A stretch of DNA of 64,000 nucleotides from an uncultured Phycisphaerales bacterium (GCA_963755915.1 CAVWLP010000002.1:2848001-2912000); one strand, 5' to 3'; positions 766 through 58,950 are shown, numbered from the stretch's first letter. The notes: generated by a model not told the origin, from the sequence alone. Made by a program: numbers and translations.

Positions 766-825
766 GGGGTTTGATCTGGCGCCGGTCCAATTTTTTTTGT
801 GGTGGGGGACATCGGTACAAAAGGT

Positions 826-1988
826 TAATCCCGTTCGGCACGGGGTTCGCGCAAGCAGCAAGATATTGAGATTGCGCCTTTGATCTTTTTATGGCATGCT
901 GCCGGACGTGCAGGCAAGACTGAAGGAAAAAGAGATCCTGTGCCTCGGGCAGGCGATCACGCTGGTCGACGGGACGGTGCTGACGGCGCTGAGTCGGCTG
1001 GCCAAATCCGCTTGCGGCATCAATGCGCGCTACAACACCTCCCGGGACGGGAAAGCGGTCTATGGCTGGCGTTTGCACGTTCAATTCGATCTGGAGACGT
1101 TCAAAGTCCATCGCCTCGACCGCACTGGCGCTCGCAACGCGGGGGCCAACCGTGAAAACAACGTCCTGCGGCGCAGCCTGGAAGCAGGACGGTGCTATGT
1201 AGGAGACGGCGGCTACGCCGACCGGAGCCTCTTTGCGGACATCGCCGCGGCGCAAAGCTCCTTTGTGATGCGGGCCGCGGAAAACTCGGTGTTTGAGCTG
1301 TTTGAAGAACGATTGCTTTCACAGGAAGCATTGGACGGCGGCGTGGTGCGAGACGCGCTGGTGAAACTCGACGGCCTGGAGACGGCGGCGGATAGGGTGG
1401 TGCGACGGGTGGAAGTGCAGGTGAAACCCCATCCGCGCCGCACGCGCAGCGGCAACAAGCCGACGGACCTGATCATCCTGTACACGAACCTGCTGGACCT
1501 GCCGGCGGAATTGATCGCCCTGATTTATCTGTACCGCTACACCGTTGAGTTGTTCTTCCGGATCTTCAAGCAACTGCTGGGCATGCGTCACCTGCTGAGC
1601 CAACGCCAGGAGGGGATCGACATCCAAATCCACTGCGCGCTGATCGTCTGCGTGCTGATTCAGCTGATCAGCGGCAGGAAGCCGAACAAGGCGATGCGGA
1701 ACATGATCGGCTGGTATCTGCTGGGGCTGGCCGAGGAACAGGACGTGCTTCGATTCCTGAACAAGCCGGATAACACCGGGATTAAGCTGAGGGCAAGAGC
1801 GGAGGCCTTGAAAAAACTGGGAGTAAACTGAAGGGGAATCCGTCGCCGCGGAGACCTCGCGGTTGATGCTGCGCTCTTGCGGACGCCGGCGTGCAGCAGG
1901 GGAAAGTAAAAGTATCTAAGCTTCAATTGTTTCGCGTCCTCCACAGCTTTGGAATGCTCCGATGAAGCCTGCGTGCCGAACGGGATTA
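826..1988 (+). mobile_element. IS4-family element A, copy 1 (internally deleted)
   Basis: Perfect 17-bp TIRs TAATCCCGTTCGGCACG (826-842 / 1972-1988); 9-bp direct repeat ACAAAAGGT (817-825 / 1989-1997); near-identical to the copy at 51628-54647 but ~326 bp shorter. Confidence 0.93.
896..1831 (+). pseudogene. IS4-family DDE transposase lacking ~109 aa of its N-terminal domain
   Basis: LVDGT, GDGGY and YLYRYTVELFFRIFK (Y-x2-R-x3-E-x6-K) motifs; in-frame fusion EILCLG|QAITLVDG relative to copy 2. Confidence 0.88.
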
Positions 1989-2130
1989 ACAAAAGGTAAC
2001 ACTCCGCAACAAGCTGGGGGGTTTGGGGGAGATGGGTAAGGCATTTTGGAGTATTTGGACATTTTAAGATTTCATTTAAGGTCTATTGTGGTCATGGCTC
2101 AAACGGAATCGAATGAAAGAATCCGTTTTG

Positions 2131-2189
2131 CGCGGAGGCGCGGAGGCGCTGAGCTTGAGACCGGATTTCTCCGCGCCTTTGCGCCTCTG
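2131..2189. repeat. Palindromic intergenic repeat (CGCGGAGGCGCGGAG...CTCCGCGCCTTTGCGCCTCTG) interrupted by the group II intron
   Basis: Same arm structure as the intact copies at 5663-5733 and 12820-12912; right arm ends at the intron GTGCG. Confidence 0.7.
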
Positions 2190-3592
2190 GTGCGTCAGTG
2201 AAACCGGTTTTGTCTTGTGAACTGAAAGGAGTTCACCATGGAATGACCCGTTAGCCGTGTAGCCGCCCGGGCGTGACGACGGAGCAATCGGTCGCGCGAA
2301 GCCCCGGAAGGCGAAGGCGCGAGCCGTAGCGTTAAGCGAACCCAAACCAGCCTCGTTACGCCAATGGGAGTGGCCAACCCGTCAGAGAGGGCCAAGCCGG
2401 CGCGGACGATGAAGCAGCGGGTGCGAGCAATCGTCCGGCTCCTCGGGGTCGATGGGGACGGCGCGTGCCGACAGACAAGATCGGGAACTGAGAGACCCCA
2501 CGCATCGTTGTGCGGCTCGTTGGAAAGACATAACCAAGGGACGGGAAGCGTGGGGAGTCGGATGGGCTCATAGTAGCTGAGAAGCGGGGTAATGCCCGTG
2601 AGCGGAGGCGAAGCCTGCCGCGAGCCAAGGAGCCCTGACGGTATCGAGCGGAAGTAAGAAGAAGAGAGGCCCGCTTGCAGGGACAACCTGACAGTACGGA
2701 TGATCCGACAGACTTGCCGGAGCACCTGAGGGTGAACTCCAGGGGTCTGCCGGGGAAAGTCTTTCTTCTGAGACAGAAGCTATACCTCAAAGCCAAGCGG
2801 GAACCGGGGTTTCGGTTTTACACCTTGTACGACCGGATCTGCCGGCGCGATGTTCTGGAAGCGGCGTGGGACCGGGTGTCCGCCAACGGCGGGGCGCCCG
2901 GCTTGGACGGGGTGAGCATCGAGAAGGTGCAAAACTCCGAGCACGGCGTCAGTGGATTCCTGAGCGAGATCGAAGAATCGCTCAAGACCCGCACCTACCG
3001 CCCGCAGCCGGTGAAGCGCGTGTACATTCCCAAAGCCAACGGCAAGCGGCGTCCATTGGGCATCCCCACGATCCGAGATCGCGTGGTGCAGATGGCGGTG
3101 CTGCTGCTCATCGAGCCGATCTTCGAGGCGGATTTCCTGGACTGTTCGTATGGATTCCGTCCCGGTCGCTCGGCTCACGATGCGCTGGAGGCGATCAAGC
3201 AAAACCTCCAGCAGGGCCGAAGGGAAGTGTATGACGCGGATTTGCAGTCGTACTTCGACACGATTCCCCATGAGAAACTGATGGCGTGTGTCCAGAAGCG
3301 GATCACGGACGGAAGCGTGCTGAAGCTGATCCGGATGTGGCTGAAGGCGGTGATCGTCGAAGAAGGCGAGAAGCCCGGCGATCCACCGAAAGTCACCCGG
3401 AGCAAACAGGGAACGCCGCAGGGCGGAGTGATCTCGCCGCTGCTGGCCAACCTATATCTGCACTGGTTTGATAAATTGTTCCACCGATCCGATGGCCCGC
3501 ATCGCTGGGCGAACGCCCGGCTGATCCGGTACGCCGACGACTTTGTCATCATGGCAAGGTATATAGGCCCTCAGATCAAGCAGTTCGTGGAG
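2190..3592 (+). mobile_element. Group II intron, 3'-truncated
   Basis: 5' GTGCG at 2190; DII/DIII-like segment GTCGGATGGGCTCATAGTAGCTGAGAAGCGGGGTAA before the ORF; RT ORF; RT similarity ends ~3592 and no DV/DVI was found. Right boundary approximate. Confidence 0.85.
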
Positions 3593-3703
3593 CTGAGCGG
3601 CAATCGGGTCGTTCAGTTCTCTACTCTACCGCGAACCTTGTATTTTTCCCGCGTTTCGGGAGAAAAGGATGGGACCACGGATTTCGCGGATGGGCGCGGA
3701 TAA
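2675..3703 (+). pseudogene. ltrA: Group II intron reverse transcriptase/maturase, truncated after YADD
   Basis: [61 protein letters not shown]; no FLG motif or X domain; last ~37 aa read through unrelated DNA. Confidence 0.9.
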
Positions 3704-47802: not shown

Positions 47803-50800
47803 ATGCAACGACCCGGTCCAAACTATCAACGCGCCAAACGCCTGTCCCACGCCGTCCTCGAAGCCCTCGAGCCACGCCGGCTCCTCTCCACCGACATCGT
47901 CACCAATCTCGCTGACAGCGGCGCAGGCTCCCTCCGCCAGACCCTCGCCAGCGCCGCCCCCGGCGACACCGTTCAATTCGCCTCCGGCCTCACCGGCACC
48001 CTCACCCTCACCAGCGGCGAACTCAACCTCAATCAAAACGTCACCATCACCGGCCCCGGCACGTCCAGCCTCAGCATCAGCGGTGGAAACAACTCCACCG
48101 TCTTCAACGTCTCCGCCGGCGTATCCGCCTCCATCTCCGGCCTCACCATCACCGAAGGCTTCGCCGGCCCCCGCGGCGACGGGGGCGACATCGACAACAC
48201 CGGAACCCTCTCCCTCTCCTCCGTCAACGTAAACCTCGGATCCGCCGAGCTCGGCGGTGGCCTCTACAACGCCGGCTCCGTCATCATCACCAACTCCGTC
48301 TTCTCCTCCAACACCGCCGGCCAACTCGGCGGCGCCATCCTCAATGCCGCCAATGGAATCATCACCGCCACCGGCGCTACCTTCACCTCAAACTCCACCG
48401 TCCAGGAAGCCGGTGGCGCGATCTGCAACGAAAACGCCACCCTCTCCCTTACCAACTCCACCCTCACCGCCAACACCTCCGGAACCTATGGCGGCGCCAT
48501 CTCCAACTTCGCCCTCGGCACTCTCATCATCAACAACAGCACCCTCTCCAACAACACCGCCGACCTCTGGGGTGGCGCTATTTTCAATTTCACCGCCGCC
48601 TCCCTCACCATCACCAACGCCACCATCTCCAATAACAAGGCCGACGACATCTTCGGCGGCGGTATCTACAACTATCAGGGCACCGCCGACATCACCGGCG
48701 CTGTCCTCTCCAACAACACCAGCGACTACGGCGGCGGCGCTATCGCCAGCTTCCTCGGCACACTCGCCGTCTCCGGTTGCACCATCTCCAATAACGGCAA
48801 CTCCACCACCCAAACCATCGGCGGTGGCATCTACACCCTCGACTACGCCGCCTCCATCACCAACTCCACCATCTCCGGAAACAAGTCCCAGTACGGCGCC
48901 GGCGTCTTCGAAGACGGCAGCGGAAGCCTCGTCATCTCCGGAACAACCCTCTCCAGCAATATCGCCAGCCAATCCGGCGGCGCCGGATACATCGACGGCA
49001 CCCTCTACATCGACAACTCCACCATCGCCTCCAACCAGGCCACCTACGGCGCCGGTCTCATGGCCATCGGAACCATCACCGCCGCCAACGTCACCATCGC
49101 CAGCAATCTCGCCGGACTCAGCGCCGGCGGCATCTACATCAACTCCGGCGACACCACCATCTACAACTCCATCGTCGCCAACAACACCCTCAGCAACGGC
49201 AAAACCGCCAGCAACATCGTCAACACCCTCGACGCCAGCCTCGCCAGCGGCGAGACCGCCAGCTCCTACAACCTCGTCGGCTCCGGTGGCACAGGTGGCC
49301 TCACCAACGGCACCCGCGGAAACATCGTCGGCGCTAACCCCTTGCTCGGTGCGCTCCAAAACAACGGCGGCCCCACGAATACCATGGCCATCCCCAGCAA
49401 CAGCCCCGCCATCAACACCGGCAGCGTCACCTTCGCCAAGTCTTACACGGGCGCCGCCCTCACCACCGACCAGCGCGGCTCCGGATTTCCGCGCACCATA
49501 GGCAGCACTGTCGACATCGGCGCTTACGAATACGAAGGCTCCTCCCCCAGCGTCAGCGGCCCAATCGTCGGCCAGAATTCACCCGCCGTCTCCGGCGCAA
49601 AAATCCCCGGCCCTCCCGCTCCCCCCGGCAGCGGTTCCGCCACCCCCTCCTTCGAAATCGATCCAGACGTTTCCCCCGCGACGGGCGCCTACACGCCCAC
49701 CGAAGTCCGCGACGCCTACGGCGTCAACGACATCCTCTTCAACGGCGTCACCGGCAACGGCAGCGGCGAAACCATCGCCATCGTCGACGCCTATAACGAC
49801 CCGGATATCATGTCGGATGCCAACACCTTCAGCTCCGACTTCGGCCTCCCCACCTTCAACTCCGGCGGCCCCACCTTGCAGGTCCTGAACCAAACCGGCG
49901 GCGCCACGCTCCCCACGAATTCCGTCCCCGGCCAGTGGGACGTCGAAGAATCTCTCGACGTCGAATGGGCCCACGCCATCGCCCCCGACGCCAACATCAT
50001 CCTTTTCGAGGCCAACAGCGCCAGCGACACCGATCTTTTTACCGCCATCGCCACGGCCGCCGACTGGACCGGCGTCTCCGTCGTCTCCATGAGCTTCAAC
50101 TCCTACGAACTCTACAACGTCTACGGCGGTGTCGAAGAAACCAGCACCGACTCCACCTTCACCACACCCACCGGCCACCAGGGAGTCACCTTCCTCGGCG
50201 CCGCCGGCGACCAGGGCGCGCCCGCCGTCGGCTATCCATCCCTTTCTCCCAACGTCATCAGCGTCGGTGGAACCTCTCTCCTCGTCGGCACCGACGACAG
50301 CTACCTCGGAGAGTCCGCCTGGTCCGGCGGTGGCGGCGGAATCAGCCTCCAGGAATCCCTTCCTTCCTACCAGATCCCCGACGCACTCAACTGGAGCTTC
50401 GTCGCCCGCACCGGCCCCGATGTCTCTATGGACGCCGACCCCGAAACCGGTGTCCTCGTCGTCGACTCCTTCGACGGTGGCTCCTTCCAGATCGGTGGCA
50501 CGAGCTTGGCCACCCCCATGTGGGCCGCTCTCATCGCCATCGTCAATCAGGGCCGCGCCCTCAAAGGCGAAACCTCCCTCGACGGCGCCAGCCAAACGCT
50601 CCCCATGCTCTACGGCCTCCCCAGCACCGACTTCCACGACATCACCACCGGCAACAACGGCTACCCCGCCGTCACCGGCTACGACCTCGCCACCGGCCTC
50701 GGCTCTCCCATCGCCAATCTCCTCGTCCCCAACCTCGCCGGCTACGACGGCACCGCCGTCTGGACCGGCCTCGTCTCCAACAACTGGTTCGTCGCCGACA

Positions 50801-51594
50801 ACTGGAACACCTTCTCCGTCCCCAACAGCACCACGGATGTGATCATCAATTTCGGCAACCCCACCGCCGCCACCCCCATCGACGTCGCCGCCCTCACCAT
50901 CAACGGCGGCACCCTCCAACTCGCCACCGGCGGTGGCTCCTCCACCGTCGCCTCCGTGACAATAGACGGCAACGGCATTCTCGACCTCACCAACAACAAG
51001 CTCTTCATCGACTACGGCTCCACGTCCGACCCCATCGCCAGCATCTACACCTGGCTGACCACCGGCTATAACAACGGCGCCTGGAACGGCCCCGGCATCG
51101 ACTCCTCCGCCGCCGCCCAAAATCCCTCCTACGCCCTGGGCTTCGCCGACGGCGCCGACAACGTCGTCTCCGGACTCGCCGCCGGCGAGATCGAAATCGC
51201 CTTTACGCTCTACGGCGACGCCAACCTCGACGGCACCGTCAACGGCTCCGATTTCTCCATCCTCGCCGCCAATTTCGGCATGGGTACCACCGACTGGGAC
51301 GAAGGAAATTTCCGCTATAACGGCGTCGTCAACGGCTCCGACTTCTCCGCCCTCGCCGTCAACTTCGGCCTCGCTGCCTCCCAGGCCGCCGTCTCCCTTC
51401 CGGTCTTCGCCGCGGCCGCGTCCACTACGTCGACCGACGATTCGACAACGCTTAAGCTTCTCACGCCATCAAAGAATATCTCCGGCGGCGTGATGGCCCG
51501 GCTCGCCGCCGATCCGCCCGTCAAGACAACGCCTCCGCCGAAATCCCCAAAACAAAATCGCCCGGCCTTTTTCACTCTTGCTGTCCGCCGATGA
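47803..51594 (+). CDS. Large secreted protein: LEPRRLLS motif, beta-helix repeats, S53 (sedolisin) peptidase and dockerin-like duplex
   Basis: EALEPRRLLS, GSLRQ, GGAI repeats, DQRG..DIGAYE, EESLDVEW, AAGD, GGTSLATP, GYDLATGLGSP and GDANLDG. Confidence 0.88.
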   Translation: MQRPGPNYQRAKRLSHAVLEALEPRRLLSTDIVTNLADSGAGSLRQTLASAAPGDTVQFASGLTGTLTLTSGELNLNQNVTITGPGTSSLSISGGNNSTVFNVSAGVSASISGLTITEGFAGPRGDGGDIDNTGTLSLSSVNVNLGSAELGGGLYNAGSVIITNSVFSSNTAGQLGGAILNAANGIITATGATFTSNSTVQEAGGAICNENATLSLTNSTLTANTSGTYGGAISNFALGTLIINNSTLSNNTADLWGGAIFNFTAASLTITNATISNNKADDIFGGGIYNYQGTADITGAVLSNNTSDYGGGAIASFLGTLAVSGCTISNNGNSTTQTIGGGIYTLDYAASITNSTISGNKSQYGAGVFEDGSGSLVISGTTLSSNIASQSGGAGYIDGTLYIDNSTIASNQATYGAGLMAIGTITAANVTIASNLAGLSAGGIYINSGDTTIYNSIVANNTLSNGKTASNIVNTLDASLASGETASSYNLVGSGGTGGLTNGTRGNIVGANPLLGALQNNGGPTNTMAIPSNSPAINTGSVTFAKSYTGAALTTDQRGSGFPRTIGSTVDIGAYEYEGSSPSVSGPIVGQNSPAVSGAKIPGPPAPPGSGSATPSFEIDPDVSPATGAYTPTEVRDAYGVNDILFNGVTGNGSGETIAIVDAYNDPDIMSDANTFSSDFGLPTFNSGGPTLQVLNQTGGATLPTNSVPGQWDVEESLDVEWAHAIAPDANIILFEANSASDTDLFTAIATAADWTGVSVVSMSFNSYELYNVYGGVEETSTDSTFTTPTGHQGVTFLGAAGDQGAPAVGYPSLSPNVISVGGTSLLVGTDDSYLGESAWSGGGGGISLQESLPSYQIPDALNWSFVARTGPDVSMDADPETGVLVVDSFDGGSFQIGGTSLATPMWAALIAIVNQGRALKGETSLDGASQTLPMLYGLPSTDFHDITTGNNGYPAVTGYDLATGLGSPIANLLVPNLAGYDGTAVWTGLVSNNWFVADNWNTFSVPNSTTDVIINFGNPTAATPIDVAALTINGGTLQLATGGGSSTVASVTIDGNGILDLTNNKLFIDYGSTSDPIASIYTWLTTGYNNGAWNGPGIDSSAAAQNPSYALGFADGADNVVSGLAAGEIEIAFTLYGDANLDGTVNGSDFSILAANFGMGTTDWDEGNFRYNGVVNGSDFSALAVNFGLAASQAAVSLPVFAAAASTTSTDDSTTLKLLTPSKNISGGVMARLAADPPVKTTPPPKSPKQNRPAFFTLAVRR

Positions 51595-52755
51595 TTTTTT
51601 GTACGCAGCCCCTTCGGTACAAAAGGTTAATCCCGTTCGGCACGCAGGCTTCATCGGAGCATTCCAAAGCTGTGGAGGACGCGAAACAATTGAAGCTTAG
51701 ATACTTTTACTTTCCCCTGCTGCACGCCGGCGTCCGCAAGAGCGCAGCATCAACCGCGAGGTCTCCGCGGCGACGGATTCCCCTTCAGTTTACTCCCAGT
51801 TTTTTCAAGGCCTCCGCTCTTGCCCTCAGCTTAATCCCGGTGTTATCCGGCTTGTTCAGGAATCGAAGCACGTCCTGTTCCTCGGCCAGCCCCAGCAGAT
51901 ACCAGCCGATCATGTTCCGCATCGCCTTGTTCGGCTTCCTGCCGCTGATCAGCTGAATCAGCACGCAGACGATCAGCGCGCAGTGGATTTGGATGTCGAT
52001 CCCCTCCTGGCGTTGGCTCAGCAGGTGACGCATGCCCAGCAGTTGCTTGAAGATCCGGAAGAACAACTCAACGGTGTAGCGGTACAGATAAATCAGGGCG
52101 ATCAATTCCGCCGGCAGGTCCAGCAGGTTCGTGTACAGGATGATCAGGTCCGTCGGCTTGTTGCCGCTGCGCGTGCGGCGCGGATGGGGTTTCACCTGCA
52201 CTTCCACCCGTCGCACCACCCTATCCGCCGCCGTCTCCAGGCCGTCGAGTTTCACCAGCGCGTCTCGCACCACGCCGCCGTCCAATGCTTCCTGTGAAAG
52301 CAATCGTTCTTCAAACAGCTCAAACACCGAGTTTTCCGCGGCCCGCATCACAAAGGAGCTTTGCGCCGCGGCGATGTCCGCAAAGAGGCTCCGGTCGGCG
52401 TAGCCGCCGTCTCCTACATAGCACCGTCCTGCTTCCAGGCTGCGCCGCAGGACGTTGTTTTCACGGTTGGCCCCCGCGTTGCGAGCGCCAGTGCGGTCGA
52501 GGCGATGGACTTTGAACGTCTCCAGATCGAATTGAACGTGCAAACGCCAGCCATAGACCGCTTTCCCGTCCCGGGAGGTGTTGTAGTGCGCATCGATGCC
52601 GCAAGCGGATTTGGCCAGCCGACTCAGCGCCGTCAGCACCGTCCCGTCGACCAGCGTGATCGCCTGCCCAAAGTCCGCAAGACGCGGATCGGCGCCTGGG
52701 GCAGTTCCCCCGCCAATTCCTCAATCAGCGGCGTCAAACGCCCCGGCTCGAACAC

Positions 52756-54277
52756 CAATATTGTCCGGGACTTCCGCGTCTTAGAGCTGGGATTTTTCGG
52801 GTTTTCACTCGAAAGGCTGTGTTGCCTCGATGGGCAACGGCGTGGAAGGTTCAGCGCTGCTCCTGCAGCGCATGCCGCGGCGTTCACCGGCGGCCGGACA
52901 ACAAAAACCCCCGGTGACTTACTTGACGATTTTTTCAGCCTTCTTCCGTGCCACACGCTGACGCTGCAGCTCGCATTCCCGTTCTCGGCGCTGCAGGATG
53001 GGAATAATCTCTTGCAACGTGGCCCCTCCCGCGGCGACCAGGCTCAGCATCGCGTAGGCATATTTGCTCACCGGACGCTGCGTGTGCAGATAGATCAACA
53101 GCACCCCGATGACCGCGATGTAGAACCCGGTGGTGACGCCGTTTTTGCTGTGGCTGGTGAGATGGCGGAAGTGGGCGTGCACTTTCAGCCAGCGGAAAAA
53201 CAGCTCGATCTTCCATCGCCAGCGGTAGAGCAGACCGATGACATGGGCGGGAATGTTAAGAAGATTGGTCAGCAGCCGCAGGGGCCTGTCGGGTTTGTCC
53301 GGGTCGAAGATCGTCACTTCCCGAAGCCATTTTCCCGCCGGAGGAGCAAAGCGTGGCCCTTCTGAGCCCAGGTATCCGATCCGGTCGCTGAGAATGCCGG
53401 CAGCGCGGTCTTCATCGCTCAGCGGCAGGGACTTGGGGGTCAAGTCATTGTTTTCGATGGGAATGAAATAGTTGTTTGACTTGAGCCGGAGCACAAAATC
53501 GCTGCAGGCATGTACGATCCGCTCCAGCAGCTCGAAACAGACGTAGCCGCGGTCCATGACGTAAATCTGTCCCGGCTCCAGGGACTGCATCAGCGCCTGC
53601 GCCTCGGAGCATCCCGCGCCGCTGATCGTCACTCCCTCGGGAACCCCCACGCCCGCCGCCCATTGAAGATTCAGGCGAATCGTGTCCATGGGCTTTCCGT
53701 TGGGTCGACTTTGATGCAGCGCCCAGGCCACGTCGGCGGCAACGGTGAACAGCGACCCATCCACCACCCGTACCCGCTCGGTCAACTCCGCCAGCTTCGG
53801 ATCGCCGTGACGCAGGTGCGGCAGCCGCGCCCGCAACTCCTCGATGATCGGCTCCAGCAGCGTCGGATCGAACAGGGCGTTGGCATCGGAAAGCGTGGAA
53901 CGCGGCAGGCGATCGACCGAAAGCTGCTCCTGCATCTGCTCGGTCTGGCTGAAATCCTCCATCGTCCGCAGGCTGCGAATCGCCGGCGTGAAAAACGCCA
54001 GCAGATAGGCAAGGGTCACATCGTCATAAAAAAGCGTGCGATTGGGGTGGGGATGCGCCGCCCGCAGGCGGGCCAGATGATCCTGCAAAATACCGACGTA
54101 CTTGCCGCCGAACAAATCCTCCCCCCGCACCGCCGGCCGCGGCTTTCGTCCCGGCTTGGCGGGCAATCCAGAAGCTGGGCAAAGGTCCGCGTGCACGTGG
54201 CGGCAGTGAACCACAAAACGCTGCTTCGCGAGGCGCAAGATCGTGTTATTTGTGAGCCTGCGTTCCGGACACTATTG
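52756..54277 (-). mobile_element. IS4-family element B nested in IS4-A
   Basis: Imperfect TIRs CAATATTGTCCGGGAC / CAATAGTGTCCGGAAC; 9-bp duplication CTCGAACAC (52747-52755 / 54278-54286). Confidence 0.92.
52919..54238 (-). CDS. IS4-family transposase, apparently intact (start uncertain)
   Basis: VVDGS, MDRGY and YRWRWKIELFFRWLK. Confidence 0.92.
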   Translation of the reverse strand: MRLAKQRFVVHCRHVHADLCPASGLPAKPGRKPRPAVRGEDLFGGKYVGILQDHLARLRAAHPHPNRTLFYDDVTLAYLLAFFTPAIRSLRTMEDFSQTEQMQEQLSVDRLPRSTLSDANALFDPTLLEPIIEELRARLPHLRHGDPKLAELTERVRVVDGSLFTVAADVAWALHQSRPNGKPMDTIRLNLQWAAGVGVPEGVTISGAGCSEAQALMQSLEPGQIYVMDRGYVCFELLERIVHACSDFVLRLKSNNYFIPIENNDLTPKSLPLSDEDRAAGILSDRIGYLGSEGPRFAPPAGKWLREVTIFDPDKPDRPLRLLTNLLNIPAHVIGLLYRWRWKIELFFRWLKVHAHFRHLTSHSKNGVTTGFYIAVIGVLLIYLHTQRPVSKYAYAMLSLVAAGGATLQEIIPILQRRERECELQRQRVARKKAEKIVK

Positions 54278-55131
54278 CTCGAACACCCGAACCGATTCAG
54301 AGAAACTGCCCACGGAAAAACGCTTAATTCCCAGCGCCTTGGCCACCTTGGGCAGTTCAGCAACCTCCTGAAGATCCCGCAGGGATTGGATCAGCGGATT
54401 CCAGGTGTAAAGCAAAACCAGCTTGCAATAATCGTCGAAGTGAAGCTGGCGGTTCCCGGCTCGATCCCGCTCACAGCCCACATCCCGCAGCGTGGGCAGC
54501 AGCGCGAAGACGCGCCGCAGATGTCCGAGGCACAGGATCTCTTTTTCCTTCAGTCTTGCCTGCACGTCCGGCAGCATGCCATAAAAAGATCAAAGGCGCA
54601 ATCTCAATATCTTGCTGCTTGCGCGAACCCCGTGCCGAACGGGATTAACAAAAGGTAACAGTCCGCAACAAACTGGGTAAGATGGGTAAAAGGGGGTACG
54701 CATTTCAGGGGCGTTGACATTAAATATACTCTTTTGTGCGTTTTTAATGACATAGCAAAATTGCTTGGCCGCAGCGGCGATCGCCGCGCTTGATGCTTTT
54801 GCGGTTGCCAACGATTTATCCCTCCCCACGACCGCCGCTCCGCCGGAGTCGGCCCGCCTGTGCGTCGCATTTGCTGTGGGAAGTGCGACAATTCTGCGGC
54901 GGCAAAGAAGAGCCGCTTCTTACGATACAAATAAAATGTAAATCGCCCCGGAATCTTTTTGCATATCCATGCGGCGAAGGTAAGATGCTCGCCAAATCTC
55001 GGCGTCGAATGGACAGACATAGTTCATCCCATGCACTTGAATGCCTGATATCTGGTTTGGGTTAGAAGTAGCACCGGCATCAGGCAATCGCGTTGCCATT
55101 TCCGTATCCTTTGGGGGCGAGAGGAGCAAAA

Positions 55132-58100
55132 ATGCATTGCACCTATTTCCAGTTGAAATCCCAATCCCCGCGCCGGCGGAAGCTGTTGGGCATGGCCGTC
55201 CTTGCGGCCACTACGGGAATTTCCTTTTCGAGCGCCTTCGCGGCGACGACCAGCGTAACCTGGACGGGGGGAACCGGGTCCTGGAGCAACCCCGCCGATT
55301 GGACTCCCAATACGGTCCCGCAAGACAGTGGCCCCAATCTCTACGCCGCTACGATAAGCAGCGGGCAAGTGACGCTTGATATCAGTCCAACCATCCAGCA
55401 ATTCAACCTTACCAATGGATCACTGACTGGAACCACGACCACTCTGACCACCGCCGGGCTGTTCACCTGGAGCGGTGGCCAGTTGGGAAGCAACGGCAGC
55501 AGCGAGACGCTCAACGCCAACGGGGGCATCAGCATCTCTAACGGCGTCACCTTCGCCGGCGGCACCATCAACGACAATGGCTCGGCCACCTGGATCAGCG
55601 GAAGTATCGGCGGCTACGGCAACGAGACGGCCGGCGGAAAGACCACCTTCATTAACGCGCTGGGCGAGACCTTCACGGTCGAGTGCGATCAGACCTACTC
55701 AGGCTACGGCGTGGAATATACCTCCACCAACAATGATGTGTTCAGCAACCTGGGAACGTTCACCAAGTCCACGACCACCGGGACCACGGACTTCGGCCTG
55801 GTGTTTAACAGCAGCGGCACGGTGAACGTGCAAACCGGCACGCTGTCGCTGGACGGGGGCGGGACCGAGACTGGCAGCTTCGCCGTCAGCAGCGGGGCCA
55901 TCCTGAAGCTTACCAATTCGACGTCCTTCTCCAGCGCCAGCACTATCGCGGGGGCAGGCAGCGTGACCTTCGCAGGCGGCGCCTCCACCGTCAGCGGAAC
56001 CTACAACCCCTCGGGAGCCACCAACGTCAGCAACGGTTCCATCACCTTCAACTCCTCCAACGTCACGATCTCCAATCTGCTGAACGTCACCGGCGGAACC
56101 GCCACCTTCACCACCGGGGACGCCAACATCAAACCTACGTCCATCACCCTCAGTGGCGGTGACCTCACCGGCTCGGATACCATCACCACCGCCGGGCTGT
56201 TCACCTGGAGCGGTGGCCAGTTGGGAAGCAACGGCAGCAGCGAGACGCTCAACGCCAACGGGGGCATCAGCATCTCTAACGGCGTCACCTTCGCCGGCGG
56301 CACCATCAACGACAATGGCTCGGCCACCTGGATCAGCGGAAGTATCGGCGGCTACGGCAACGAGACGGCCGGCGGAAAGACCACCTTCATTAACGCGCTG
56401 GGCGAGACCTTCACGGTCGAGTGCGATCAGACCTACTCAGGCTACGGCGTGGAATATACCTCCACCAACAATGATGTGTTCAGCAACCTGGGAACGTTCA
56501 CCAAGTCCACGACCACCGGGACCACGGACTTCGGCCTGGTGTTTAACAGCAGCGGCACGGTGAACGTGCAAACCGGCACGCTGTCGCTGGACGGGGGCGG
56601 GACCGAGACTGGCAGCTTCGCCGTCAGCAGCGGGGCCATCCTGAAGCTTACCAATTCGACGTCCTTCTCCAGCGCCAGCACTATCGCGGGGGCAGGCAGC
56701 GTGACCTTCGCAGGCGGCGCCTCCACCGTCAGCGGAACCTACAACCCCTCGGGAGCCACCAACGTCAGCAACGGTTCCATCACCTTCAACTCCTCCAACG
56801 TCACGATCTCCAATCTGCTGAACGTCACCGGCGGAACCGCCACCTTCACCACCGGGGACGCCAACATCAAACCTACGTCCATCACCCTCAGTGGCGGTGA
56901 CCTCACCGGCTCGGATACCATCACCACCGCCGGGCTGTTCACCTGGAGCGGTGGCCAGTTGGGAAGCAACGGCAGCAGCGAGACGCTCAACGCCAACGGG
57001 GGCATCAGCATCTCTAACGGCGTCACCTTCGCCGGCGGCACCATCAACGACAATGGCTCGGCCACCTGGATCAGCGGAAGTATCGGCGGCTACGGCAACG
57101 AGACGGCCGGCGGAAAGACCACCTTCATTAACGCGCTGGGCGAGACCTTCACGGTCGAGTGCGATCAGACCTACTCAGGCTACGGCGTGGAATATACCTC
57201 CACCAACAATGATGTGTTCAGCAACCTGGGAACGTTCACCAAGTCCACGACCACCGGGACCACGGACTTCGGCCTGGTGTTTAACAGCAGCGGCACGGTG
57301 AACGTGCAAACCGGCACGCTGTCGCTGGACGGGGGCGGGACCGAGACTGGCAGCTTCGCCGTCAGCAGCGGGGCCATCCTGAAGCTTACCAATTCGACGT
57401 CCTTCTCCAGCGCCAGCACTATCGCGGGGGCAGGCAGCGTGACCTTCGCAGGCGGCGCCTCCACCGTCAGCGGAACCTACAACCCCTCGGGAGCCACCAA
57501 CGTCAGCAACGGTTCCATCACCTTCAACTCCTCCAACGTCACGATCTCCAATCTGCTGAACGTCACCGGCGGAACCGCCACCTTCACCACCGGGGACGCC
57601 AACATCAAACCTACGTCCATCACCCTCAGTGGCGGTGACCTCACCGGCTCGGATACCATCACCACCGCCGGGCTGTTCACCTGGAGCGGTGGCCAGTTGG
57701 GAAGCAACGGCAGCAGCGAGACGCTCAACGCCAACGGGGGCATCAGCATCTCTAACGGCGTCACCTTCGCCGGCGGCACCATCAACGACAATGGCTCGGC
57801 CACCTGGATCAGCGGAAGTATCGGCGGCTACGGCAACGAGACGGCCGGCGGAAAGACCACCTTCATTAACGCGCTGGGCGAGACCTTCACGGTCGAGTGC
57901 GATCAGACCTACTCAGGCTACGGCGTGGAATATACCTCCACCAACAATGATGTGTTCAGCAACCTGGGAACGTTCACCAAGTCCACGACCACCGGGACCA
58001 CGGACTTCGGCCTGGTGTTTAACAGCAGCGGCACGGTGAACGTGCAAACCGGCACGCTGTCGCTGGACGGGGGCGGGACCGAGACTGGCAGCTTCGCCGT

Positions 58101-58950
58101 CAGCAGCGGGGCCATCCTGAAGCTTACCAATTCGACGTCCTTCTCCAGCGCCAGCACTATCGCGGGGGCAGGCAGCGTGACCTTCGCAGGCGGCGCCTCC
58201 ACCGTCAGCGGAACCTACAACCCCTCGGGAGCCACCAACGTCAGCAACGGTTCCATCACCTTTAACTCATCCCATGTCTCGATCTCGACCCTGGCAATCT
58301 CGGGTGGGGAAGCGATCCTGGCTCAGAACACCGGACCGCAAACTTTGCAATCGCTTACCATCACCGGTGGATCGCTCGACATCACCAACAATCACATTTT
58401 CATCAACTACGGCAGCGGCTCCGACCCGATTGCCACAATCGCCCAATACCTCGCTTCCGGTTATGCCGGCGGCGGATGGGACGGCCAAGGAATCATCTCC
58501 TCCACGGCGCGAAACACGACCAATGGCCTCGCCTACGGCATCGGCTGGGCCGATGGGAAAGATCATATCGTCTCGGGTCTATCCTCGGGCGAAATCGAGC
58601 TTAAATACACCCTACTTGGCGATGCCAATCTCGACGGCACGGTCAACGGCAGCGATTTCAGCATCCTCGCCGCCAATTTTGGACTTGGGCATACCAACTG
58701 GGATCAGGGAAATTTTCTCTACACTAGTAGCGTAAACGGCTCCGACTTCAGCGCGTTAGCCGCCAACTTCGGCCAGGGCGATAGTGGCGCGGATACTGCC
58801 GTCTCCCAAGCCGACATCCAGGCCCTAGACTCATTCGCCATCGCCAATGGCTTACCCCTCCCCACATTCGCCTCCGTCCCCGAACCCGCCACCGGCGGCT
58901 TGCTTCTCGCGGCTACAACCGGAGCATTATTGCGTCGTCGCAGAAATTAA
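55132..58950 (+). CDS. Repetitive beta-strand-rich surface protein with dockerin-like duplex and PEP-CTERM
   Basis: GAGGAG RBS, signal peptide, ~3.8 repeats of 246 aa, GDANLDG duplex and VPEPAT..LLRRRRN. Confidence 0.88.
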   Translation: MHCTYFQLKSQSPRRRKLLGMAVLAATTGISFSSAFAATTSVTWTGGTGSWSNPADWTPNTVPQDSGPNLYAATISSGQVTLDISPTIQQFNLTNGSLTGTTTTLTTAGLFTWSGGQLGSNGSSETLNANGGISISNGVTFAGGTINDNGSATWISGSIGGYGNETAGGKTTFINALGETFTVECDQTYSGYGVEYTSTNNDVFSNLGTFTKSTTTGTTDFGLVFNSSGTVNVQTGTLSLDGGGTETGSFAVSSGAILKLTNSTSFSSASTIAGAGSVTFAGGASTVSGTYNPSGATNVSNGSITFNSSNVTISNLLNVTGGTATFTTGDANIKPTSITLSGGDLTGSDTITTAGLFTWSGGQLGSNGSSETLNANGGISISNGVTFAGGTINDNGSATWISGSIGGYGNETAGGKTTFINALGETFTVECDQTYSGYGVEYTSTNNDVFSNLGTFTKSTTTGTTDFGLVFNSSGTVNVQTGTLSLDGGGTETGSFAVSSGAILKLTNSTSFSSASTIAGAGSVTFAGGASTVSGTYNPSGATNVSNGSITFNSSNVTISNLLNVTGGTATFTTGDANIKPTSITLSGGDLTGSDTITTAGLFTWSGGQLGSNGSSETLNANGGISISNGVTFAGGTINDNGSATWISGSIGGYGNETAGGKTTFINALGETFTVECDQTYSGYGVEYTSTNNDVFSNLGTFTKSTTTGTTDFGLVFNSSGTVNVQTGTLSLDGGGTETGSFAVSSGAILKLTNSTSFSSASTIAGAGSVTFAGGASTVSGTYNPSGATNVSNGSITFNSSNVTISNLLNVTGGTATFTTGDANIKPTSITLSGGDLTGSDTITTAGLFTWSGGQLGSNGSSETLNANGGISISNGVTFAGGTINDNGSATWISGSIGGYGNETAGGKTTFINALGETFTVECDQTYSGYGVEYTSTNNDVFSNLGTFTKSTTTGTTDFGLVFNSSGTVNVQTGTLSLDGGGTETGSFAVSSGAILKLTNSTSFSSASTIAGAGSVTFAGGASTVSGTYNPSGATNVSNGSITFNSSHVSISTLAISGGEAILAQNTGPQTLQSLTITGGSLDITNNHIFINYGSGSDPIATIAQYLASGYAGGGWDGQGIISSTARNTTNGLAYGIGWADGKDHIVSGLSSGEIELKYTLLGDANLDGTVNGSDFSILAANFGLGHTNWDQGNFLYTSSVNGSDFSALAANFGQGDSGADTAVSQADIQALDSFAIANGLPLPTFASVPEPATGGLLLAATTGALLRRRRN
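55447..58262 (+). repeat. Tandem repeat, 738-bp unit, ~3.8 copies, apparently identical
   Basis: Identical shadow ORFs recur every 738 bp (55704, 56442, 57180, 57918). Confidence 0.95.

Follow-up and report, generated by a model that had tools for sequence, protein, structure and literature searches.

The window, i.e. the whole stretch of 64,000 nucleotides analysed here, is part of the genome of a soil Phycisphaerales bacterium (G000; 6.63 Mb in three contigs, 59% G+C), which is a metagenome assembly with an estimated completeness of 81% and an estimated contamination of 8%; the gene calls for this genome are our own and are crude. Two copies of an insertion sequence, referred to as IS-A, are present in the window, in opposite orientations, at 826-1988 (+) and 51628-54647 (-), and both have the ends TAATCCCGTTCGGCACG / CGTGCCGAACGGGATTA. 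For comparison we used the genome of a sister species of the same genus (G001), 29 other relatives (11 from the same genus, which are 59-93% complete, and 18 from the same family or class) and the public sequencing runs X1, X2, X5 and X8, which were compared as contigs; X8 is a metatranscriptome, and the gaps in contig cover of the window in X5 and X8 are uninformative.

The two window sites

Both IS-A copies are surrounded by the same 9-bp duplication, ACAAAAGGT, at 817-825 and 1989-1997 (site 1) and at 51619-51627 and 54648-54656 (site 2), which confirms what an earlier note on this DNA had described for the two oppositely oriented IS4 copies. The further details given there were reproduced as well: the rebuilt 35-nt empty sites differ at two of the 35 positions, TTTTTTGT is located at 793-800 and 51595-51602, 11 nt 5' of TCGGT in both sites, and on the 3' side both continue with GATGGGTAA followed by GCATTT and GACATT. 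The flanks of the two sites are oriented alike and IS-A is inverted between them. That the IS copies are almost identical and their surroundings diverged also holds, with 99.8% identity over 1042 nt and 100% over 123 nt for the IS-A copies and divergence of the site 1 and site 2 flanks past a repeat, fam1, that is present at both sites.

At site 1 the 5' part of fam1 (773-825, +) comprises a T-run (791-798), followed by a GC-rich spacer and by the left duplication, and its 3' part (1989-2065, +) comprises the right duplication, AACACTCCGCAACAA, three TGGG words approximately 9 nt apart, GCATTT and GACATT. The corresponding parts at site 2 are located at 51590-51627 (+; T-run 51595-51600, then the left duplication) and 54648-54725 (+; beginning with the right duplication). 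IS-A copy 1 (1163 bp) has lost 327 bp in frame, IS nucleotides 124-448 being absent, and its ORF (896-1831, +) encodes 311 aa in which the DDE core is kept and residues 19-127, which are likely the DNA-binding part of the transposase, are gone. In Tn5 a truncated protein inhibits transposition, and by likeness to that protein the 311-aa product could be a transposition inhibitor. Copy 2 (3020 bp) is a complete IS-A into which another IS4-family element, IS-B (1523 bp; 52756-54278, -), is inserted. IS-B has its transposase gene at 52919-54238 (-) and an 8-bp duplication, TCGAACAC; the pieces of the IS-A transposase gene are found at 51785-52639 and 54272-54577 (-). Both window copies are thus defective, each by its own private defect.

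Intact IS-A measures 1487-1491 bp, has perfect inverted ends of 17 bp and contains a single ORF of 420 aa. The predicted transposase scores 70.2 bits against Pfam DDE_Tnp_1 (cut-off 23) and 154.9 bits against NCBIfam NF033592, the IS4 family transposase (cut-off 115). A catalytic triad of D134, D213 and E327, with residues assigned by motif inspection, gives spacings of 78 and 113, and YLYRYTVELFFRIFK at residues 320-334 corresponds to the Y(2)R(3)E(6)K signature; this signature and a D(60-110)D(100-150)E spacing are hallmarks of the IS4 family according to passages in PMC2266710. Together with the single ORF, the inverted ends and a duplication that corresponds to about one turn of the helix, these features place IS-A in the IS4 family. 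For the subgroups, the listings in PMC2266710 give ends CA------T and duplications of 8-10 bp for IS4Sa, and ends -AATR--------WTW and duplications of 10-13 bp for IS4; IS-A begins TAATC, where AAT agrees with the latter and position 5 does not agree with R, and its 9-bp duplication fits IS4Sa.

A short-read contig from X1 spans 511-841 with zero differences and hence supports the left junction of site 1; in the same run the depth of the IS contig is approximately 17x that of the flanks, as expected since IS-A is multi-copy. In a contig from X2, position 772 is joined to 2130 with five other letters between, and this arrangement is that of the sister species, where the whole unit of approximately 185 nt is absent from the orthologue of site 1 and the yidC stop codon is directly followed by a hairpin repeat; the fam1 segment 773-825 is absent at both places. 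An IS-A-like contig with 34 differences is present in the metatranscriptome run X8, although transcription cannot be concluded from contigs and the sequence may stem from carried-over DNA.

Downstream of site 1, and directly 3' of a G+C-rich hairpin repeat, is a group II intron (2181-3631, +; Rfam RF02005 match at 2228-2458), which is 531 bp shorter than the copies of approximately 1984 bp elsewhere; the genome contains about 13 copies, and the orthologous site in the sister species is uninterrupted. Site 2 is flanked by two very large secreted-looking proteins (47803-51594, 1263 aa, and 55093-58950, 1285 aa) with repetitive beta-helix-like segments and a common C-terminal module, of which the sister species has dozens of occurrences at 70-80% DNA identity; the 1285-aa protein has, by eye, a PEP-CTERM-like tail at its end.

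Insertions and target pattern in two genomes

The window genome has 25 IS-A copies, i.e. 23 full-length copies plus the deleted and the interrupted copy of the window. The 9-bp duplication is perfect at 17 of these, carries one mismatch at three and is lacking at five. Two copies form an inverted pair, 240 bp apart (C2:4392726-4395944), in which the flanking 9-mers are exchanged (ACAAAACGT / ACGTTTTGT), a sign of recombination between IS-A copies that fits an inversion; besides this pair, three more copies are without a duplication. The duplication ACAAAAGGT or its complement was found at six of the 25 copies, and with a chance of about 4^-9 that two random insertions have a common 9-mer this agreement is far beyond chance. 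Moreover, ACAAAACGT or its complement occurs several times, and duplications found singly include ACATAATTT, AAATTATGT, ACACATTGC, GCAGATCGT, ACTGTTCGT, ACATTCCGT and CTAATCTGG, the last being a poor fit to the pattern described below. The sister species has nine IS-A copies, 95-96% identical to those of the window genome and all with perfect 9-bp duplications: ACAAAAGGT at three, ACAAAACGT at two, and ACATTTCGT, ACAGAATGT, ACAGAACGG and CCGTTCTGT at one each.

Among the 20 sites with a duplication in the window genome, G at -3, A at 0 and C at +1 were each found 18 times, and in the right half G at +7 was found 19 times, T at +8 17 times and C at +11 16 times. Position -2 (T9/G9/C2) mirrors position +10 (A10/C7/G2/T1), and the pairs -3/+11, -2/+10, 0/+8 and +1/+7 are related by mirror symmetry about the centre of the duplication, which is A/T-rich in the used sites. 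Pooling of the two genomes gave 29 duplication-bearing sites with 16 distinct 15-mers, and in the 32 half-sites folded from these the counts were G 28, T 20, W 26, A 26 and C 30. The target of IS-A is therefore GTWAC-N5-GTWAC, symmetric, with an A/T-rich centre and with cuts behind the third base of either pentamer, and the staggered cuts yield the duplication AC-N5-GT. Because GTWAC is self-complementary, direct repeats of such words are also palindromic. The motif is symmetric beyond the duplication and both orientations are used at one site, as expected for a palindromic target.

The near site-specific targeting that the earlier note had suggested is hence borne out, in that 29 insertions define one symmetric 15-bp pattern. 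Copies with unrelated duplications had been named there as evidence that would speak against it; instead, 20 of the 25 copies in the window genome and nine of nine in the sister species have a duplication, and these sites jointly define the pattern, with CTAATCTGG as a poor fit.

With respect to independence, the orthologue of site 2 in the sister species is the same repeat, uninterrupted and with a single ACAAAAGGT, and both flanks are syntenic with 88-93% identity. Two insertions in the sister species (L041 and L043) have orthologous fam1 copies in the window genome that are empty (C2:3813057-3813139 and C3:380361-380446). One orthologous site is occupied in both species (C2:1988281-1989770 and L039) with IS-A in opposite orientations and with diverged duplications (ACAAAACGT/ACAAAACGG against ACAGAACGG), as would result from two separate hits on the site or from an old insertion and a later inversion. 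The fam1 insertions are divided 3:3 between the two orientations in the window genome, and the three in the sister species are all oriented one way. Given 29 duplication-bearing sites, two species, both orientations and three empty orthologous sites, the independent insertions favoured in the earlier note are supported. IS-A is probably an active or recently active element.

We also considered that the window loci are not independent, such that repeat and IS spread together as a unit by duplication, gene conversion or recombination, or that one is an artefact of assembly. The five copies without a duplication and the swapped flanks of the inverted pair tell that recombination does happen, and the genome is a metagenome assembly with the contamination given above. 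However, IS-A is inverted relative to flanks that are oriented alike, and these flanks diverge past the repeat. In the sister species site 2 is unoccupied, with syntenic sequence to its left and right, and each of the two window copies has a private defect unlike that of the other. The left junction of site 1 is crossed by a contig from a public run. We regard a common origin or an artefact as extremely improbable.

Repeats and related elements around the target

The sequence surrounding the two window insertions had been described as a conserved unexplained motif. It is indeed conserved, but it is not special to the two loci, since it represents a dispersed repeat with at least 67 further copies. 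These are full copies retrieved at E<1e-4 with a fam1 profile built from six filled sites, and partial copies were found in addition. In the consensus of approximately 110 nt a T-run is followed by a G+C-rich spacer whose length is constant, by the block GGTACAAAAGGTAACAGTCCGCAACAA, by three TGGG words with a spacing of about 9 nt and by a tail that is weaker and ends near TGACAT; the conservation is blockwise, not even. A 27-mer core, with up to two mismatches allowed, gave 31 hits in the window genome, 32 in the sister species and none in the 29 other relatives, and a reversed control pattern gave 0 hits; among the 31 genomes searched, fam1 was found in these two only. With our crude gene calls, 60 of the 67 copies are intergenic, and fam1 is on the same strand as the upstream gene in 40 of 67 and as the downstream gene in 37 of 67.

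A scan of the window against Rfam at the gathering score gave no match at fam1, the sole match being the group II intron at 2228-2458. For the 67 aligned copies RNAalifold gave 0.0 kcal/mol and predicted no consensus pairs for either strand; since the value for column-shuffled controls was likewise 0.0, the result is to be read as absence of signal only. The TTTTGT-N16-ACAAAA dyad mentioned in the earlier note accordingly lacks RNAalifold support as a conserved structure among these copies. We rejected fam1 as a REP or BIME since the 67 copies have no conserved stem-loop in RNAalifold, as a structured RNA (no Rfam match, no consensus pairs), and as a promoter or terminator in view of the mixed gene orientation and no sigma-70-like spacing by eye. 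As regards a MITE, the site 1 unit of about 185 nt is present in the window genome and absent in the sister species and in the X2 contig, and neither inverted ends nor a clear duplication was found around the unit. With respect to REPs, two Y1-transposase (PF01797) genes are present in the window genome. Based on the copy search, RNAalifold and Rfam, we consider fam1 to be a lineage-restricted, dispersed intergenic repeat and not a structured RNA or REP, and a literature search by title and abstract found no description of such repeat families in Phycisphaerae.

A second family, fam2, has about 28 empty and four filled copies; these have an A-rich leader, GGTACAAAACGTACACCTTTTGGACCTGTATATAGA and tails that differ by subfamily (e.g. 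C2:1087817, C2:4027218 and C3:588328). In 20 of 28 copies its orientation is that of the predicted gene downstream; this is no more than suggestive, and on that ground fam2 may be a candidate promoter. Other repeats are phased-word arrays composed of three words of 5-6 nt with a 10-bp period, CTTTT, approximately 10 nt, TTAGTnnnnGCTAR and a G-rich tail (e.g. C1:72371, C2:448387, C2:3912056 and C3:1016066); the words, e.g. TGAACA, CTGACA, GTTACG, GGGACG and GCTAC, vary between copies. By eye these arrays have a -35/-10-like spacing of 16-17 nt, but as promoters they were rejected since the orientation of the downstream genes is 10:10. Described in the same terms, fam1 has three GNNAC words that recur every 10 bp and, after these, three TGGG words about 9 bp apart.

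Two further IS4-family elements are found at these places. IS-B, the element nested in copy 2, has a protein 29% identical to that of IS-A and 18 copies in the window genome, most of them with 8-bp duplications (e.g. CAAAAGTG, CAAAAACG and ACTTTTTG); in the phased-word arrays it sits beside the IS-A target, with the third word on one side and the TTAGT..GCTAA block on the other. IS-C has four copies, including C2:2541309-2542800, with the ends CATTGCCGTTCGGTAC and a transposase 44% identical to that of IS-A; it begins CATTGCCGT, which fits CA------T, and its sites are ACAWWWWGT, as for IS-A. One IS-C copy is interrupted by IS-B and one adjoins an IS-A copy.

In the window genome there are four close convergent fam1 pairs, 3.9-5.4 kb apart (C2:227676-231558, 403041-408482, 3515142-3519276 and 3844637-3849408), enclosing accessory-looking genes such as regulators, surface proteins and a large methylase-like ORF. 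The enclosed segments are absent, replaced or reshuffled in the sister species, where the outer flanks are kept. Five fam1 loci of the sister species are syntenic on the T-run side and not on the opposite side. A 3' side that is always non-syntenic was rejected as a rule, since both sides are syntenic at window site 2 and at L041, and the pairs were rejected as ends of one transposon as the four interiors have only repeats in common; their flanks are too diverged for a duplication to be read. The pairs and the one-sided synteny offer a lead, not a result, that fam1 might lie at the borders of segments private to one species.

Target choice by IS-A and its probable basis

The fam1 copies provide an internal comparison of the repeat and the word pair. 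The 67 empty copies comprise 31 with the canonical GGTACAAAAGGTAAC and 36 variants, which are mostly without G at -3 or GT at +7/+8 (a natural example is AATACAAAACTTTAC), and occupancy is 6 of 37 for canonical versus 0 of 36 for variant copies (Fisher p=0.025). Use of fam1 is thus restricted to copies with the word pair, and the remaining insertions are in unrelated repeats that have only the word pair in common with it. As read by eye from the flanks, 25 of the 29 insertions lie within repeat arrays and four outside, and sequence and context are therefore confounded; the sites were also put into families by eye, and since repeat copies share flanks and are non-independent observations, the IS-A sites are partly non-independent. 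Empty sites with the strict pattern number 60 in the window genome versus 88 expected from base composition: 32 are in fam1 and 28 outside, and the class of 28 takes none of the 20 insertions. Many of these 28 are G+C-rich at the centre and 13 of the 60 are in predicted genes, such that selection or the composition of the centre may be behind their zero use, though a dependence on the context is also conceivable; unfilled AT-centred sites exist, e.g. GTAACAAAACGTAAC.

In our opinion the best reading of these data is, with high probability, direct and symmetric recognition of the target by the IS-A transposase, for which a guiding host protein is superfluous. The earlier note had proposed a host protein bound to the motif; 16 core sequences and several unrelated repeat families share the pattern, so that such a guide is not needed, and it keeps a small share of the probability. 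In its general form, a protein encoded by the host or by the element is bound to the phased-word arrays and tethers the transposase, the arrays and not the bare sequence being the target. This would account for the 25 of 29 insertions in arrays (flanks read by eye), for IS-B also inserting at a fixed, neighbouring position of the arrays and for the 28 strict-pattern sites outside fam1 of which none is filled. Still, the arrays that are used differ in words and flanks and have the symmetric pattern alone in common. Furthermore, T at +8 (17 of 20) is expected of a palindrome but not of directly repeated words, the symmetry of -2 and +10 argues in the same direction, the CTGACA and TGAACA arrays are used only at junction words that fit GNWAC, variant fam1 copies are never used, and no candidate protein is known. 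Tethering to the arrays is, in our judgement, clearly unlikely.

Alternatively, the shape of the DNA, bent or deformable with phased A/T tracts, might be what mainly drives the choice, with the conserved bases being a by-product of the repeat families. The used sites do have A/T-rich centres, T-runs and A-runs are phased in the repeats, and a title cited in PMC2266710 concerns, for IS231A, a target consensus together with bending of the DNA. But G at -3, C at +1, G at +7 and C at +11 are kept outside the main repeat families (GCAGATCGT, ACTGTTCGT and ACATTCCGT), and fam1 variants with the same A-tract and altered outer bases are unused, which makes a choice mainly by shape very unlikely.

Under direct recognition, the transposase, presumably as a symmetric multimer, would select a palindromic target with staggered cuts; that it reads the bases itself and acts as such a multimer we infer from the analogy with Tn10 and Tn5 and from the model in which target sites are palindromic. 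The target would be 5'-G-T/G-W ^ A-C-(A/T-rich N5)-G-T ^ W-A/C-C-3' (cuts at ^), i.e. two self-complementary GTWAC pentamers one helical turn apart, with cuts 9 bp apart that would lead to duplication of AC-N5-GT, and the A/T-rich centre probably eases bending. In this genome of 59% G+C such a pattern is rare except in a few intergenic repeat families built from phased GNNAC words. Because fam1 carries GGTACAAAAGGTAAC, separate insertions occur on the same base and in either orientation, and IS-A has probably spread because its rare target sits in harmless intergenic repeats. That IS-A has reached 25 copies without gene hits would likewise follow from the location of the target pair in intergenic repeats.

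A more far-reaching idea, which we rate as unlikely, is that the phased-word arrays (fam1, fam2 and those with three words, CTTTT and TTAGT..GCTAA) are binding arrays for a DNA-binding protein or recombinase and mark the edges of exchangeable gene islets, and that three related IS4-family elements have evolved homing to fixed array positions. If so, the repeat would belong to a new, cassette-like system of plasticity, and the IS elements would be specialised parasites of that system. The repeat families may in any case matter for genome plasticity in the little-studied Phycisphaerae.

Comparable target choice is known from other IS4-family elements. Table 1 of PMC2577343 lists symmetric motifs around a 9-bp duplication for Tn10 (GNNGCTNAGCNNC) and Tn5 (AGNTYWRANCT), and the staggered-cut palindromic model as presented there predicts that both orientations are used. 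As far as these sources describe them, Tn10/IS10 and Tn5/IS50 resemble IS-A in being IS4-family DDE elements with a 9-bp duplication, a centred symmetric motif and insertion in either orientation. In contrast, the IS-A motif is GTWAC-N5-GTWAC with key bases that straddle the cuts, it seems stricter among natural copies, and the ends of IS-A are TAATCC where Table 1 of PMC2266710 gives CT/CW for the IS10 and IS50 subgroups. IS231A is also an IS4-family element with symmetric outer words N5 apart (GGG-N5-CCC) and a repeated mobile-DNA target, the ends of Tn4430 (PMC2577343 Table 1; PMC2266710); it differs from IS-A by 10-12-bp duplications, CAT ends and another motif, as compared by listings and passages.

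Passages in PMC1525189 describe IS elements of several families that home to REP sequences, such as ISRm22 (IS4Sa, from Sinorhizobium meliloti), IS1397, ISKpn1, IS621 and ISPsy8, and report for ISRm22 that ten of ten copies are at one position of an extragenic repeat, a 'type 1 association'. Most or all copies of ISRm22 and the other REP-homing elements are at the same position of the repeat, and the repeat is rebuilt once the IS is removed, as for IS-A in fam1. Unlike these elements, IS-A uses repeats that are not palindromic REPs and have no consensus hairpin in RNAalifold, and it uses several unrelated repeat families, with four of 29 sites outside recognised repeats. The statement in the earlier note that IS4-family elements usually target loosely is too broad, given the strong specificity of IS231, IS10, ISRm22 and some elements of the IS4 subgroup; for the last two a passage in PMC2266710 speaks of 'spectacular apparent insertion specificity'. 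This kind of target choice is hence already known, and what is new here is the motif and the use of non-palindromic host repeats. With 29 insertions in two species, empty orthologues and the variant fam1 copies as an internal control, IS-A represents an unusually clean natural data set, and a transposase that needs two GTWAC words one helical turn apart could become a model for how DDE enzymes read their targets. Finally, a point that counts against direct recognition of this target is that relatives from other genera with transposases 42-44% identical to that of IS-A have 9-bp duplications of unrelated sequence (single copies, read by eye).
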